DNA of 64,000 nt, taken from NCBI GenBank assembly GCA_016927655.1, contig JAFGMG010000012.1, forward strand, positions 42,618-106,617. Direction: 5' to 3'. The notes beneath the pieces were generated by a model that did not search any database, was not told the origin of the DNA, and saw only the letters and a list, made by a program, of their open reading frames with translations. Positions 3,152-48,390 of the stretch are shown one piece after another. The stretch's first letter is position 1. Every line of letters begins with the position of its first letter. This stretch comes from Candidatus Dojkabacteria bacterium (lineage in GTDB: Bacteria; Patescibacteriota; Dojkabacteria; B142; JAFGMG01). The translations under genes were made by a program, and so were the position numbers.

Positions 3152-4090
3152 CTAAAATCTGTGCAAATCATAGCTGCGCCCCTCTCCCTCAAACCAGGTT
3201 ATCTGCCTTTTGGCGTACTGTTTATGAGCCAGCGCGATCTTCTCAATCAATTCACCCTTAGATTTTATTACGCCATCAATATACTCAATTGTTTGTCTAT
3301 AACCAGTTGCCTGCATTGATTTGAGATCCTTGGCAAAGCCTTTTGCCAAAAGGGCCTCTACTTCCTCTATCAATCCTTCATTAACCATCTCCTCAGCCCG
3401 TTTTTCTATTTTTCTTATCAACTCTTCCTGTTTGTAGTTCGGATAATAAAACTCTACCTCATAGGTATCTATTATTCCCATGCTCGATTTTCCAATTAGC
3501 CTTTTATCATACTGTTTCTCAATTTTTCGAATCAACCTCCTTGGATTTTTCTGATCGGATTCATTAAGTTTATCTAAATCAAAACCAGTGTTTTCAAGCT
3601 CCTGCTGGAGTCTTTTTAGATCCAATACCTCAAGTTTTCTTCTAAGTTCTGGATTAGGTGCTGCTTTCATTTCGTACCCTTTAATCAATCCATCTATATA
3701 CAAACCGCTGCCACCAACGATTATTGGTGTTTTTTTACGTTTTATAATATTTTTAATAACTGCGATTGCGAGGATTTGGAAATGTGCAACGGTGAAATTG
3801 AAATCTGGAGGGACAATGTCAAACATCCAGCCTATGACCCCGGATCCCTCTATTTCAAAAGGGCAGATTTCAAAATTCCTTTCTAGTGCCTCGACTTTTA
3901 TCGGGCTTTCTAATGAAGATCGCTTCATCTTTTCTTTATTCGTGCCAATATCCATTCCCTCATAAACCTGCATCGAATCAGCATTAACGATTTCACCATC
4001 AACCTCACGGGCGAGTTCAATCGCCTTCGAGGTTTTGCCCGATGCTGTCGGGCCGCCGATTATGTAAATCTTATTTGGGAGCTTTATCAT
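3152..4090 (-). CDS. miaA: tRNA dimethylallyltransferase
   Basis: N-terminal P-loop IYIIGGPTASGKTSKAIELAR...VNADSMQVY is typical of MiaA; 312 aa. Confidence 0.88.
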   Translation of the reverse strand: MIKLPNKIYIIGGPTASGKTSKAIELAREVDGEIVNADSMQVYEGMDIGTNKEKMKRSSLESPIKVEALERNFEICPFEIEGSGVIGWMFDIVPPDFNFTVAHFQILAIAVIKNIIKRKKTPIIVGGSGLYIDGLIKGYEMKAAPNPELRRKLEVLDLKRLQQELENTGFDLDKLNESDQKNPRRLIRKIEKQYDKRLIGKSSMGIIDTYEVEFYYPNYKQEELIRKIEKRAEEMVNEGLIEEVEALLAKGFAKDLKSMQATGYRQTIEYIDGVIKSKGELIEKIALAHKQYAKRQITWFEGEGRSYDLHRF

Positions 4091-4979: not shown

Positions 4980-5072
4980 AACTTTAGCGGGATAATAATT
5001 AATTAAGGTTTAATTTATTCGCTATCAAGATAGCATTATTTGCAAATGTCGTAAACTATATTTCAAATGGGC

Positions 5073-27269: not shown

Positions 27270-28043
27270 CTACATAAACAGCATATAGGCAAGAATTGCT
27301 GACGCTGCCAGGATCGCAAGTATTAAAAATATTAATACAATTTGCATCATTCCTCCTGATCCACCTTTTTTGCCAGGTTTTTTTTGTGCTTTATCCATTT
27401 CGACTTTTTCATCCAAACTTGGAAGTCCTGTGTCTTCTGGTTGTGTGGGCGCTGCCATTATCTCTTCCAATTTATCTTGATTTGGTACTTCATGCACAGG
27501 TTCTGCAGGTTCTACTTTTACCGGTTGTTCCGCTGGTTGTTCTTCTGGTTGTTCTGCTGCAAGTTCAGGGAGTTTATCCAGTGTTACTTTTTCTTCAACT
27601 GGTTCTGCTATTTTGTTATCTGTAGATTCCATCATAGGAGCTGGTTCCATTACTGGTTCTGGGGTCATTGCCGGAGCTGGCTCTAATGTCGGTTCTATTG
27701 AAGGTTCGGGGGTAGTATCTTTAACCGGTTCCGGCATAGTAACCGGTGCCGGCTCAGTGCTTCCTTCTACTACATGTTCACTTCCATTGCCGTTTTTCAA
27801 TTCAGCATTTGGATCAATCGGCACTTCAGCCGGTTGCGTCACACCCGCTACAGTATCATCTGCAGGGATTTTCATTTCAGCATCCAGATCCACCGTTGTT
27901 GTTGCTGCGTCTTGATCTTGGTCTAAAGCTGCTTCTTGAGCTGGAGCCTGAGGTGTAGCCATTTCGTCCACAGGCGGCACTACTGGTGCTGCCGGATTTG
28001 TACTATCTAAAGCTGGTTCTGTACCTGTTTGTGGAATTGCCAT
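27270..28043 (-). CDS. Low-complexity Pro/Glu/Ala/Thr-rich protein with C-terminal TM tail-anchor
   Basis: Reiterated PEPV/TPEP/EPAP units at protein and DNA level. C-terminal MMQIVLIFLILAILAASAILAYMLFM. Confidence 0.5.
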   Translation of the reverse strand: MAIPQTGTEPALDSTNPAAPVVPPVDEMATPQAPAQEAALDQDQDAATTTVDLDAEMKIPADDTVAGVTQPAEVPIDPNAELKNGNGSEHVVEGSTEPAPVTMPEPVKDTTPEPSIEPTLEPAPAMTPEPVMEPAPMMESTDNKIAEPVEEKVTLDKLPELAAEQPEEQPAEQPVKVEPAEPVHEVPNQDKLEEIMAAPTQPEDTGLPSLDEKVEMDKAQKKPGKKGGSGGMMQIVLIFLILAILAASAILAYMLFM

Positions 28044-28151
28044 AATTTTTATTAATTAATAAACAAATACAATATATAGAAAGCTGGAAGATATGACAAG
28101 AATTTTTTAAGTCTCAATCAGGTTCTTTTTGTGATAAAATTGAATGGAGTT

Positions 28152-28226
28152 GGTGTAGTAGCCAAGTAGTAAGGCAACGGTCTGCAAAACCGTTATACGC
28201 GGGTGCAATTCCCGCCTACACCTCCA
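28152..28226 (+). tRNA. tRNA-Cys (GCA)
   Basis: Acceptor GGTGTAG/CTACACC, anticodon loop CTGCAAA, T-arm GCGGG-TGCAATT-CCCGC, discriminator U73 (a Cys identity element), CCA encoded. Confidence 0.85.
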
Positions 28227-28228
28227 AA

Positions 28229-28301
28229 GCCGGCCTGTCTACCGACAGGTAGACATGGTGGAATTGGTAGACCTGCCTGCCGGCAGGCAGGCACGCTGGA
28301 C
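28229..28301 (+). pseudogene. Decayed duplicate of tRNA-Leu positions 1-32, interrupted by two perfect palindromic mini-insertions
   Basis: GCCGG[cctgtctaccgacaggtagac]ATGGTGGAATTGGTAGAC[ctgcctgccggcaggcagg]CACGCTGGAC matches the intact tRNA-Leu at 28559 onward, outside the bracketed inserts, up to the anticodon loop. Confidence 0.6.
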
Positions 28302-28315
28302 ATTAGAAACATTAA

Positions 28316-28612
28316 ATGTACTATGTTTATGCCATTAAAAGTCAAATTAGAAATTACATCTACGTAGGACTAACAAATAATATCAAAAGAAGGCTTGACC
28401 AACATAACAAGGGGAAATCTAAAACAACTAAACCTTACAGACCGTTTGGATTGATATATTTAAAAGAAGTTCGTACACGGAAAGAAGCCAGAGAAATTGA
28501 GAAGAATCTTAAATCAGGCTATAGAAAAGAGTACCTAAAAGGTTTAAAATCTAATAATGCCGGGATGGTGGAATTGGTAGACACGCTGGACTTAAAATCC
28601 AGTGGGAGTTAA
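28316..28612 (+). CDS. GIY-YIG nuclease domain protein; last ~18 codons read into tRNA-Leu
   Basis: YYVYAIKS...IYVGLTNNIKRRLDQHN is a GIY-YIG signature. The ORF overlaps the tRNA-Leu gene at 28559-28612. Confidence 0.7.
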   Translation: MYYVYAIKSQIRNYIYVGLTNNIKRRLDQHNKGKSKTTKPYRPFGLIYLKEVRTRKEAREIEKNLKSGYRKEYLKGLKSNNAGMVELVDTLDLKSSGS

Positions 28613-28644
28613 ATCCCGTGCGGGTTCAAGTCCCGCTCCCGGCA
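28559..28644 (+). tRNA. tRNA-Leu (TAA), class II with long variable arm
   Basis: Acceptor GCCGGGA/TCCCGGC, anticodon loop CTTAAAA, variable arm TGGGAGTTAAATCCCGT, T-arm GCGGG-TTCAAGT-CCCGC, discriminator A. Confidence 0.88.
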
Positions 28645-28680
28645 CTTTACCTAATCAAACTAGCCTTCAAGACAATACTT

Positions 28681-29226
28681 ATGAAACGCTATTATGGGTT
28701 TTGGCTGCTTTTTGATTCCTCAACAAAAAAAAACTTGCGGCCAATTATTCAAACTTTAAGCAATAAATTCCTAGGTGGAGAAGTATTCGAGCCGCATATA
28801 TCAGTAAATTATCCTTCTTATTGCGAATTAAAAGATATTGTATTAAAAATTGAAGAAAACTTTATTAATCAGAAACAATTTACAGTCAATACTGAAGGGA
28901 TTGGAATGGAAGATACATGGTCAAAAACTTTGTATGTAAATATTAAAATGCAAAAAGAATTGATTAATATTAATAATAAACTAAAACAAATCTTTCCAAG
29001 AAAAGAAACTCCGAATGAGCAATTCCATCCACACATGAGTTTATTGTACAAACAAGGGTTGAGAGAAAAAGATAAAGTACTCTCTATCGAAAATATTTCT
29101 ATCCCTAAAAGATTACAAATAACTTCTCTTGCAATAATTGATCCTGGTATTGATAATGATAACTGGAAAGATTTCACACAATGGAAAATCCCATATAAGA
29201 TTGACTTTAATCATCCCACCACATAA
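28681..29226 (+). CDS. 2H phosphoesterase family protein (LigT / 2'-5' RNA ligase / cyclic phosphodiesterase-like)
   Basis: Two H-x-S/T-x motifs (FEPHISV, FHPHMSLLY) at the spacing typical of the 2H superfamily. Start set at MKRYYGF (28681), after the tRNA. Confidence 0.55.
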   Translation: MKRYYGFWLLFDSSTKKNLRPIIQTLSNKFLGGEVFEPHISVNYPSYCELKDIVLKIEENFINQKQFTVNTEGIGMEDTWSKTLYVNIKMQKELININNKLKQIFPRKETPNEQFHPHMSLLYKQGLREKDKVLSIENISIPKRLQITSLAIIDPGIDNDNWKDFTQWKIPYKIDFNHPTT

Positions 29227-41732: not shown

Positions 41733-42004
41733 GACGTCGGAATTTTGCTTCAGACTGCGTTCATTTGTATACAAATGAACTTTACCTTTCGCAAATTCCT
41801 CCTTTTTCGAATTAATTCCCGAAGGTCATTAATTCGAGCAAAGTGAAGATAAATTTCTAAAGAACTTCGCAATTATACTCCAAAGCAAGTCTTCTTGTCA
41901 CGAAGCTATTTGATTATAAGAAATTATTTATCTTATTGTTATATTTTTTATCTTCTGACGTTTGATATGTATAATTAGAAAATTATCCCTCTCAAAAATA
42001 ATAG

Positions 42005-48360: not shown

Positions 48361-48390
48361 TATTATCAAACATTGCCGATCGGCAATGTC
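48361..48390 (-). terminator. Possible lepA terminator (18-nt perfect palindrome + weak U tract)
   Basis: Minus strand GACATTGCCGATCGGCAATGTTTGATAATA. Confidence 0.35.

Follow-up and report, generated by a model that had tools for sequence, protein, structure and literature searches.

A small GIY-YIG nuclease gene and a 20-nt hairpin between a broken and an intact tRNA-Leu gene: a probable Ssn-like cassette in tRNA operons

The window, as we call the whole 64-kb stretch of DNA analysed here, contains a broken tRNA-Leu gene carrying two hairpins, followed by a nuclease gene and an intact tRNA-Leu gene. This arrangement had been picked out by a reading of the DNA letters without database searches (the sequence-only reading), and we found it to be genuine, with small corrections. 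We consider it probable that the locus is one case of a widespread selfish, Ssn-like cassette in tRNA operons, in which a gene for a GIY-YIG nuclease of ~80 aa and its cognate 20-nt hairpin lie between a hairpin-interrupted partial tRNA duplicate and the intact tRNA. The layout, with a tiny GIY-YIG gene and a palindrome inside tRNA genes, is widespread and apparently undescribed; the sequence-only reading could not name a described case, and our literature searches likewise turned up no description.

All features of the locus lie on the forward strand. An intact tRNA-Cys(GCA) at 28152..28226 (ARAGORN; Rfam tRNA 67.5 bits) is followed, after a spacer of 2 nt, by a partial, non-functional copy of tRNA-Leu(TAA) at 28229..28301, defined from the sequence and by alignment to the intact gene; because the copy begins 2 nt past it, tRNA-Cys serves as a marker of the original upstream junction. 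Inside the copy are two 20-nt hairpins: the variant hp2 (CCTGTCTACCGACAGGTAGA; 28234..28253; sequence and DNA fold) between tRNA positions 5|6, and the canonical palindrome hp1 (CCTGCCTGCCGGCAGGCAGG; 28272..28291; sequence, with clean n|n+1 junctions) between tRNA positions 23|24. The whole of 28229-28301 reads GCCGG[CCTGTCTACCGACAGGTAGA]C-ATGGTGGAATTGGTAGA[CCTGCCTGCCGGCAGGCAGG]CACGCTGGAC, where the inner brackets mark the hairpin inserts. The GIY-YIG nuclease ORF, which encodes a single-domain protein of 98 aa (Pfam PF01541), occupies 28316..28612, and the intact, functional copy of tRNA-Leu(TAA) occupies 28559..28645 (ARAGORN; Rfam tRNA 63.9 bits, full length), beginning directly past the conserved core of the ORF. 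The insert is ~330 bp in size with one 80-aa ORF, and it is the 5′ part of the tRNA that is duplicated in the window.

The sequence-only reading had placed tRNA-Leu positions 1-32 in the duplicate. The duplication stands, and its extent needs correction: the copy covers positions 1-33 with a single substitution, G6>C (1/33 positions differing from the intact gene), and in the alignment a gapped likeness extends to about position 39, at 28308. The similarity goes beyond chance, since a 16-nt D-arm string occurs only twice in the whole 64 kb. The suspicion that the fragment is non-functional also held up, as neither ARAGORN nor Rfam called a tRNA at 28229-28301. Among 76 tRNA-Leu genes, the best match to the window fragment is its own neighbouring tRNA-Leu, and the own neighbouring tRNA is the best match for 47 of 48 family fragments. 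Thus the local tRNA is the source of the duplicated, broken copy, as had been proposed, and a fragment brought in from a donor is ruled out.

The two hairpins had been described as mini-insertions of 21 and 19 nt. They are indeed discrete, with clean junctions in the tRNA copies, and both measure 20 nt. The second, hp1, is the perfect palindrome that it was said to be, at 20 nt, and shows no target-site duplication at its insertion. The first, hp2, forms a hairpin (6-8 bp stem, 4-nt loop; DNA fold z = -3.8) and is not a full palindrome. The two are mutually similar: hp2 shows five differences from hp1, and these are mutually compensatory, with both 6-bp stem registers still fully paired. Each hairpin is present as one copy in the 64-kb window (for hp1 at up to 3 mismatches, this is the sole occurrence, with 0.01 expected), so that a dispersed-repeat lifestyle is not evident in this genome. 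Outside the window, the identical hp2 20-mer recurs in two distant genomes, in the T-loop of tRNA-Leu fragments from a member of the Cyclobacteriaceae (locus L006) and from Flavobacterium cheonanense (L063). Hairpin copies adjoining homologous ORFs, counted as 20-mers within 5 substitutions of hp1, are exact in 47 of 81 cases, while the proteins share just 60-70% identity; the hairpin sequence is conserved far better than the protein or the surrounding DNA. Its sites in the tRNA-Leu fragments of the family are 5|6, 15|16, 23|24, 31|32, 39|40, and the T-loop, and the preferred insertion points are 15|16 (the commonest), 23|24, 39|40, and the T-stem/T-loop junction. The flanks of hp1 are whichever tRNA position has been interrupted, or unrelated DNA, with no conserved directional flank. 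An origin of the palindromes as local inverted copies of their flanks (P-nucleotide-like) is ruled out by the presence of the same 20-mer in unrelated flanks.

By profile, by conserved residues, and by modelled fold, the predicted protein belongs to the GIY-YIG nuclease superfamily. The window ORF matches Pfam PF01541 over residues 1-71 (E = 5.7e-19; 68.6 bits, cut-off 22.6) and the family profile over positions 1-79 (135.8 bits, frameshift-free). Its homologues are 77-83 aa long, with matches limited to the GIY-YIG domain and related nuclease families over the same stretch, and the family comprises 2,906 clusters (50% identity, E ≤ 1e-10). NCBIfam holds no model for it, and the group I intron endonuclease model TIGR01453 gives 20 bits against a cut-off of 56. 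The conserved catalytic set is present (Tyr of GIY, Tyr of YIG, Arg, His, and Glu): across 25 homologues Y5, Y16, G18, R26, and H30 never vary and at least 90% have E62, and these residues presumably correspond to the catalytic residues of I-TevI. The AF2 model (pLDDT 91.8) has the element order E-E-H-E-H-H, matching the GIY-YIG fold of a three-stranded sheet with helices on its flanks, and the closest folds found by Foldseek are UPF0213, Slx1, and HIGLE (probability 1.0), with I-TevI far weaker. Profile, homologues, and AF2 model agree that there is no linker or C-terminal DNA-binding domain and that the protein stops after the catalytic domain. The ORF had been noted to end in the 5′ part of the tRNA-Leu gene, and its final 17 sense codons and stop do lie there. 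The conserved core is residues 1-80, and this last stretch is probably an accidental tail. In loci of the window-like form the gap from stop to tRNA has a median of 11 nt (range 1-82); because homologues normally end ~11 nt ahead of the tRNA, we regard the running of the ORF into the tRNA as incidental.

The sequence-only reading took the layout for the scar of a small element with hairpins riding along. Instead, we found a conserved architecture, with two mirror forms, in multiple phyla. We compared 81 close-homologue loci, drawn from Patescibacteria, Bacteroidota, Ignavibacteriota, and others. In 75 of them a same-strand tRNA-Leu lies beside the ORF, with all five anticodons represented and a distance of no more than 120 nt in 69 of the 75, which confirms the suspected tie between the GIY-YIG gene and tRNA-Leu. 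Nor are the hairpins mere passengers: about 95% of the ORFs have a near-exact copy with them, and in about 75 of the 81 loci a copy within about 2 differences (substitutions or small indels) of hp1 is no farther than 300 nt from the ORF. Nearly all of these hairpins are inserted without target duplication in a partial copy of the same tRNA, and the hairpin-bearing copy always flanks the ORF opposite the intact tRNA, either as a 5′ fragment upstream of the ORF or, in the mirror form, as a 3′ fragment downstream. The palindrome stands on both sides of the ORF in about 13 of the 81 loci, and tandem arrays of fragment and ORF are present at L001, L003, L010, L015, and L049. Fragments of tRNA-Asn, Ser, Lys, Arg, and a further tRNA also contain the exact palindrome, with homologous ORFs alongside.

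The family is patchily shared across distant hosts and stable within some. An ORF from Paceibacterota is 82% identical to one from Flavobacterium (a neighbour-joining tree of the 80-aa protein is too weak for dating transfers), and the same locus and layout are kept in Flagellimonas, Flavobacterium, and Chitinophagaceae. We found no pair of empty and filled sites, and it is therefore the distribution only that speaks for mobility. Exact-sequence look-ups of window proteins, aimed at empty-site strain variants, gave no record of the GIY-YIG ORF, of the helicase, or of the 181-aa protein downstream, and the look-up with the upstream 257-aa protein led to one contig, which ends inside tRNA-Cys and did not yield the empty site. 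Viral contigs scanned for the ORF gave 2 loci only, and because the family is this rare there, they point to no transfer vehicle.

The palindrome also turns up by itself in unrelated settings, metagenomic and viral, in at least 160 cases, which makes it a widespread element in its own right. Its solitary settings are intergenic DNA, the inside of coding sequence, and phage tRNAs; at L014 it lies in frame within a coding sequence, the host gene being presumably miaA-like from its translated motif. On metagenome and viral contigs, ~92% of exact palindromes have no family ORF within 400 nt, and 42 exact palindromes are on viral contigs. Apart from this GIY-YIG family, no protein recurs as a neighbour of the palindrome. 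The sequence-only reading had allowed that the palindromes might be generic, abundant repeats and that GIY-YIG ORFs might show no enrichment at tRNA loci; this holds in part, as the copies elsewhere number at least 160, yet the GIY-YIG gene is tied to tRNA-Leu in 75 of 81 loci. Rickettsia palindromic elements are likewise short and palindromic and can insert in frame into protein-coding genes. The in-frame palindrome at L014 is similar in this respect but differs from them in sequence and length, and we know of no link between Rickettsia palindromic elements and tRNA fragments or this family of GIY-YIG ORFs.

Our preferred reading as a selfish cassette is modelled on Ssn, single-domain GIY-YIG nucleases of ssDNA that cut beside hairpin repeats (NTS/SRM) flanking their own genes (Chenal et al., Nat Commun 2025, PMC11893778). 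The likenesses are a single GIY-YIG domain of about 80-95 aa with no DNA-binding domain (the core here is ~80 aa; for the Ssn family, cd10448, about 90-100 aa is given), a gene beside which lies a hairpin-forming inverted repeat of 20-50 nt with further copies elsewhere, and, in some loci, an IS-like layout of repeat, gene, and repeat. The differences are that no tRNA association is reported for Ssn, that the motif of Ssn has a direction, set by a conserved flank upstream of it (Neisseria NTS), whereas the hairpin here is a perfect palindrome, and that the hairpin here sits in a duplicated tRNA fragment. A single sequence link was obtained, 33% identity to the longer single-domain GIY-YIG ORF of L170, which has the same palindrome downstream and which may be Ssn-like. 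The Ssn authors themselves liken Ssn to REP/RAYT and IS200/IS605 (PMC11893778). The family here shares with those systems short palindromic hairpins without target-site duplication, in many solitary copies with few protein genes; however, where those systems have an HUH/Y1 transposase, it has a GIY-YIG hydrolase, which cannot carry out strand transfer itself. No HUH/Y1 transposase gene lies next to the window locus.

Because Ssn nucleases act on their flanking hairpins in this way, and because the modelled fold is nearest to structure-selective nucleases, we postulate that what the nuclease recognises is the hairpin in an extruded or single-stranded state. Recognition centred on the hairpin is also favoured by its presence with homologous ORFs on other tRNA species and by the lack of any other recurrent protein neighbour. 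The nearest matches in both sequence and fold are UPF0213 and Slx1-like proteins (PDB 1zg2, 1ywl; Slx1 7cq2, 6seh); Slx1 is a structure-selective nuclease. For UPF0213 and Slx1-like proteins no link to tRNA genes or hairpin repeats is known, the sole hint being a fusion to TrmH (tRNA Gm18 methylase) noted for prokaryotic Slx1-like proteins (PMC1564403). The insertion mechanism of the cassette is one that we infer. The point at which the cassette entered a tRNA gene would have been a structural junction, in most cases past the D arm or in the anticodon loop, and the stretch from the gene end to the entry point would have been duplicated, either by widely staggered nicks and fill-in or by single-crossover integration of a circular copy; owing to the duplicated stretch, the host would keep an intact tRNA. 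Hairpins would keep inserting into tRNA-like DNA and would survive only in the dispensable copy, and tRNA genes would offer the selfish pair of nuclease and hairpin a safe, conserved, and highly expressed home. Since a GIY-YIG nuclease has no strand transfer of its own, host repair functions must be assumed.

We also put forward, tentatively and as a possibility, that the family represents a prokaryotic mobile element of a new class, made up of a minimal structure-selective GIY-YIG nuclease and a palindromic hairpin of 20 nt. Together the two would enter structured DNA, chiefly tRNA genes, along a single-strand route that leaves no target-site duplication; part of the target would be duplicated and the intact tRNA thereby regenerated. 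The hairpin would also spread alone (into intergenic DNA, phage tRNAs, and coding sequences in frame), and the element would have radiated onto different tRNA species in at least four phyla.

Two kinds of known tRNA-gene insertion were considered and rejected. Group I introns occur in bacterial tRNA genes, including tRNA-Leu(UAA) and the tRNA genes of Patescibacteria (PMC13011429). They resemble the present locus in their insertion at or near the anticodon loop, in sometimes having a homing endonuclease ORF, and in the frequency of Patescibacteria as hosts; here, in contrast, no intron RNA is detected, the downstream tRNA is complete and not a 3′ exon, and the 5′ piece is a duplicate. A group I intron and a split or permuted tRNA are both ruled out, as Rfam at E ≤ 10 gave only the two intact tRNAs and noise (miRNA families; permuted tmRNA at 14.9 bits, cut-off 47), with no group I intron match within 27900-28900. 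Integrative elements that target tRNA genes have an integrase and a duplicated 3′ end as attL/attR, whereas here there is neither and it is the 5′ part that is duplicated in the window. The lack of an integrase, the tiny insert, and the wrong duplicated end exclude an integrase-type tRNA island.

The best-surviving alternative, which we nevertheless consider unlikely, is a classical free-standing homing endonuclease that cuts cassette-free duplex tRNA-Leu genes, with repair copying the ORF and its flanks and the hairpins either unrelated or merely breaking the target in the spare copy. The strict tie to tRNA-Leu is consistent with this, the tandem arrays fit repeated gene conversion, and the commonest hairpin site, 15|16, breaks the most conserved stretch of tRNA-Leu. 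A precedent is T4 SegB, a GIY-YIG homing endonuclease encoded within a tRNA gene cluster, which favours the passing on of its own gene together with the tRNA region next to it (PMC2330249). The gene here also lies amid same-strand tRNA genes, but the family is chromosomal, with 2 viral loci only. SegB and enzymes of the I-TevI type are phage-borne and comprise several domains, one of them a DNA-binding module, in about 200 aa or more, and to our knowledge neither a hairpin nor a duplicated tRNA fragment accompanies them. Against homing, the protein here is an ~80-aa catalytic domain alone, without linker or DNA-binding domain, and its fold is nearer to Slx1 and UPF0213 than to I-TevI. As for immunity of the gene-bearing allele through an altered or split target, the signs are mixed: the spare copy is split by the hairpin, yet next to it in cis there is always an unaltered tRNA-Leu, which equals the fragment in sequence around the hairpin site and would be a self-target. 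The hairpin positions also vary, so that no single site is masked, and the same pair of hairpin and ORF occurs on five other tRNA species.

Less probable again is that the protein is a domesticated Ssn-like host nuclease directed against incoming palindrome-bearing ssDNA (from transformation, conjugation, or phage), with the tRNA operon providing constitutive expression only, the fragment an old scar, and the hairpin autoregulatory or leftover. SsnA does restrict transforming DNA bearing its hairpin (PMC11893778), and the 42 exact palindromes on viral contigs are in keeping with such a role. The ORF is clearly constrained, as seen in the five invariant catalytic-motif residues and the at least 90% conservation of E62, and locus and layout are stable in the host clades named above. 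However, a domesticated function leaves unexplained why a tRNA fragment nearly always houses the hairpin, why the fragment takes two mirror forms, and how the tandem arrays, the patchy cross-phylum spread at 82% identity, and the parallel lineages on other tRNAs arose.

The transcription of the locus bears on a third alternative. A candidate extended -10 element, TGaTAAAAT, was picked out by eye at 28132..28140, 11 nt upstream of tRNA-Cys; the consensus scan gave no -35/-10 pair at this position, which is likely the start of a transcript through tRNA-Cys, the fragment, the ORF, and tRNA-Leu. The consensus scan gave no plausible ORF-specific promoter, its one forward-strand hit (28297-28324) putting the -10 over the ATG, and no terminator was found on the forward strand over 28152-28645. 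The ORF would be co-transcribed with the tRNAs without a promoter of its own, and RNase P would release the tRNA from the 3′ end of the ORF transcript. An RNA-level element, in which hairpin and tRNA-like fragment would work within the transcript, signalling processing or stability so that a leaderless nuclease mRNA is freed from the tRNA precursor, would suit the same-strand orientation in all loci, the very short distance to the tRNA, and the lack of a separate promoter or terminator, and the hairpin would fold as RNA too. We judge it very improbable all the same: the hairpin precedes the ORF in one form and follows it in the other, it occupies many fragment positions, it stands by itself in phage tRNAs, between genes, and within a coding sequence, and it matches no Rfam family. 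That the locus is inert debris, with the duplication in decay and the gene dying and no longer active, is hardly credible, for although the window ORF lacks a normal stop and runs into the tRNA and the fragment is unable to make a tRNA, the ORF retains its frameshift-free match of 135.8 bits to positions 1-79 of the family profile, the hairpin is an exact consensus copy, and the fragment differs from the intact gene at only 1 of 33 positions.

If the hairpin is the recognition site, the nuclease would be a candidate for a very small DNA-cutting tool specific for both sequence and structure. The cassette would also add a new case of selfish DNA that occupies an essential gene while the host survives, and would extend the Ssn idea of a nuclease and its hairpin to Patescibacteria, Bacteroidota, and Ignavibacteriota and tie it to tRNA genes. 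Thousands of unannotated 'GIY-YIG nuclease family proteins' gain a genomic signature and a testable partner sequence. The architecture accounts, finally, for a set of annotation artefacts, namely pseudo-tRNA fragments, assembly breaks at tRNA-Leu, and N- or C-terminal 'LPAGRQ' and 'MVELVDT' extensions; many homologues in the databases carry N-terminal extensions that translate the same upstream motif, for example WRNLPAGRQVGR and MVELVDTHDLPAGRQ.

Direct reading of 27800–29200 confirmed the order tRNA-Cys, broken tRNA-Leu with hairpins, GIY-YIG ORF, and intact tRNA-Leu proposed in the sequence-only reading. ARAGORN called both tRNA-Cys(GCA) (28152–28226, plus strand; Rfam tRNA model 67.5 bits) and intact tRNA-Leu(TAA) (28559–28645, plus strand; 63.9 bits). 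The partial tRNA-Leu copy begins two bases past tRNA-Cys and reads GCCGG(CCTGTCTACCGACAGGTAGA)C-ATGGTGGAATTGGTAGA(CCTGCCTGCCGGCAGGCAGG)CACGCTGGAC, with the 20-mer inserts in parentheses. Aligned to the intact gene, this copy minus both 20-mers is tRNA-Leu positions 1–33 with one substitution (G6>C), and gapped similarity extends to about position 39; the duplication is thus real, with an extent of 1–33 instead of the 1–32 first described. Because removing the 20-mers restores positions 1–33, each insert is 20 nt, rather than 21 and 19 nt as originally read. The hairpin variant hp2 (CCTGTCTACCGACAGGTAGA, 28234–28253, plus strand) lies at 5|6 (between tRNA positions 5 and 6), and hp1 (CCTGCCTGCCGGCAGGCAGG, 28272–28291, plus strand), a perfect palindrome as first noted, lies at 23|24; both form hairpins as single-stranded DNA (fold z = –3.8). 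Neither ARAGORN nor the Rfam tRNA model called a tRNA in the copy (28229–28301), which had been predicted to be nonfunctional. Within the 64-kb window, the 16-nt D-arm string occurs just twice, hp1 is the sole G+C-rich long palindrome, and no further hp1 copy was found at ≤3 mismatches (expected 0.01). Two 20-nt perfect palindromes unrelated in sequence to hp1 were also seen, TTCATTTGTATACAAATGAA (41760–41779, 28 nt 5′ of a minus-strand tRNA-Lys) and ACATTGCCGATCGGCAATGT (48370–48389).

The ORF (28316–28612, plus strand; GIY-YIG domain match E = 5.7e–19) does read into tRNA-Leu, which supplies its last 17 codons and stop. This tail is probably accidental, as the window ORF has 98 aa and homologues (58–73% identity) normally have 77–83 aa. 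N-terminal extensions are also common in database entries (e.g., WRNLPAGRQVGR, MVELVDTHDLPAGRQ, PACRQAG), and they arise from translation of a tRNA 5′ fragment together with the palindrome, as LPAGRQ is encoded by CTGCCTGCCGGCAGGCAG. A library-wide profile search (E ≤ 1e–10) gave 2,906 clusters at 50% identity. Among 25 homologues, Y5, Y16, G18, R26, and H30 are invariant and E62 is kept in at least 90% of sequences. No NCBIfam model covers the family, and its nearest solved sequences are UPF0213 proteins. The AlphaFold model of the window protein (pLDDT 91.8) is closest in fold to UPF0213, Slx1, and plant HIGLE, with much weaker matches to I-TevI and UvrC. UPF0213, Slx1, and plant HIGLE are structure-selective nucleases. 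In one tRNA-Leu(TAA)-linked homologue (locus L179, ~640–900), a TGA codon occupies the invariant Gly position of the YVG-LT motif and more TGAs occur in frame; UGA probably encodes Gly in this host (code 25, Gracilibacteria/Absconditabacteria). Another locus (L170, 4913–5538) has a longer single-domain GIY-YIG ORF (...GFTKRYNCHYLVYYE...REKEIKKWRREKK...) that shares 33% identity with the one in the window; downstream of it, a ~140-nt repeat occurs twice, with the exact palindrome in each copy.

Scanning a single genome for each species returned more than 546 relatives, and we compared the best 80, from Patescibacteria, Bacteroidota, Ignavibacteriota, Chlorobiota, and one Planctomycetales MAG, together with the window locus (81 loci). 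A same-strand tRNA-Leu adjoins the ORF in 75 of the 81, with all five anticodons represented and a distance of ≤120 nt in 69 of these 75; the other six lie at contig ends or within tandem arrays. The layouts mirror each other: 52 loci, like the window, run 5′ fragment, ORF, intact tRNA (type A; median stop-to-tRNA distance 11 nt), and 23 run intact tRNA, ORF, 3′ fragment plus repeated trailer (type B). Tandem arrays of fragment plus ORF were found too. When fragments were compared with all 76 intact tRNA-Leu genes, the best match was the fragment's own neighbor in 47 of 48 clean-junction loci, indicating that the duplication was made at, or kept homogenized with, the resident gene and that the fragment was not imported with the ORF. 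These data show that the arrangement is conserved across several phyla and combines a nuclease gene, a hairpin, an intact tRNA gene, and a partial duplicate of that local tRNA.

The hairpin is a regular partner as well. In about 75 of the 81 loci, an hp1 copy (about two differences at most) lies no more than 300 nt from the ORF. It invariably interrupts the tRNA fragment, on the ORF side opposite the intact gene, and 47 copies are exact despite proteins at 60–70% identity. With flanks mapped onto the neighboring tRNA, the junctions are clean (left flank ending at n, right flank beginning at n+1), with no target duplication. The hairpin most often interrupts the D loop at 15|16 (GGAA^TTGG; ~35 loci). 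Other favored points are 23|24 (GGTAGA^C; the window and ~10 others, largely from Patescibacteria), 39|40 (3′ border of the anticodon loop), and the boundary between T stem and T loop. In type A fragments the ends nearest the ORF, although fuzzy as local-alignment ends, cluster around positions 23–25 and 33–40, the hairpin-site regions. The identical hp2 sequence is present in tRNA-Leu fragments of two other hosts, a Cyclobacteriaceae MAG and Flavobacterium cheonanense. hp2 differs from hp1 at five positions; these changes abolish the long palindrome but keep every base pair of the two 6-bp stem registers. Such a pattern would arise if the feature that matters is a short stem-loop, formed on either strand; templated copying from one arm to the other could likewise account for it. 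Downstream of intact tRNA-Leu(TAA) in locus L038 (~3420–3780), two more full-length pseudo-tRNA-Leu copies hold several different short insertions, including two adjacent T-loop palindromes; such spare copies seem to act as hairpin sinks.

The possibility that the palindromes are generic repeats is partly borne out, since solitary copies occur in metagenome and viral DNA. An exact 20-mer search matched at least 120 metagenome and 35 viral stretches, and among the matches listed a family ORF lay within 400 nt of 8 of the 127 copies from metagenomes and of 1 of the 42 from viral contigs. The ORF–tRNA and ORF–hairpin links are nevertheless much too strong to be incidental. Among the same matches, GIY-YIG was the sole protein family recurring beside the palindrome, and ORF-linked palindromes showed the same layout with tRNA-Asn, tRNA-Ser, tRNA-Lys, and tRNA-Arg and, on a viral contig, with one additional tRNA. 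What stays constant is therefore the nuclease paired with its hairpin, and what varies is the tRNA. Some solitary palindromes lie in AT-rich, tandem-repeat-rich intergenic DNA. They often sit amid short intergenic tandem repeats with one 10–25-nt unit on both sides, as in the metagenomic or viral loci L083, L100, L123, L126, L151, L209, and L224, which may be a signature of local duplication or simply local sequence style. Others lie in complete phage tRNA-Met genes: two viral contigs (L225, 2239–2330; L202, ~8616) carry the exact palindrome in a tRNA-Met that is otherwise complete, where the variable loop would be. ARAGORN still calls the former as a 92-nt tRNA-Met, and the tRNA may thus accommodate the hairpin as an additional arm. 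In locus L014, ~2030 nt downstream of the GIY-YIG ORF (~5030–5050), the palindrome variant CCTGCCTGCCGGTAGGCAGG forms a 21-nt in-frame insertion (...AQKLRR-LPAGRQ-GEIISADSRQ...) in a coding sequence whose translated motif suggests a miaA-like gene. The insertion recalls Rickettsia palindromic elements.

We propose that the nuclease recognizes the hairpin and that the cassette inserts at structural junctions of tRNA genes, duplicating part of the gene and so leaving the host a working tRNA; the ORF would be cotranscribed with the tRNAs, and hairpins would last only in the dispensable copy. The earlier interpretation, a small GIY-YIG element targeted to or duplicated with the tRNA-Leu 5′ half, was largely right but too narrow, as the locus is one member of a widespread cassette. 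A classical double-strand homing endonuclease aimed at tRNA-Leu is argued against by the lack of any DNA-binding domain in the window protein, the unaltered tRNA-Leu in cis, the differing hairpin positions among loci, and the same nuclease/hairpin pair on other tRNAs. The most relevant precedent for the tRNA-nested cassette is the Ssn family (PMC11893778). Its members, single-domain GIY-YIG proteins, bind hairpin repeats located beside the genes that encode them and cut adjacent single-stranded DNA; that study makes no mention of tRNA association. Our literature search found no paper with the palindrome, the LPAGRQ peptide, or a GIY-YIG link to partial tRNAs. The cassette appears to be undescribed and is best filed as a putative variant of Ssn-type nuclease/hairpin pairs.

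Exact-sequence look-ups of window proteins recovered no empty site. The only public contig found with an identical window protein, the 257-aa one encoded upstream of the tRNA cluster (L236; Logan SRR13394437, 29 kb), ends inside tRNA-Cys, indicating that assembly breaks at the repeat-bearing tRNA locus. No terminator or credible promoter was found between tRNA-Cys and tRNA-Leu; a TGaTAAAAT resembling an extended –10 element was noted by eye 5′ of tRNA-Cys. The minus-strand gene next to the tRNA cluster on its upstream side (27270–28043) encodes a 257-aa protein of low complexity, rich in Pro, Glu, and Ala, that ends in a hydrophobic C-terminal segment and has no Pfam match. Directly 3′ of tRNA-Leu (28681–29226, plus strand), a 181-aa 2H-phosphoesterase/2′-5′ RNA ligase-like ORF (PF13563, PF07823) may share a transcription unit with the tRNAs and nuclease.
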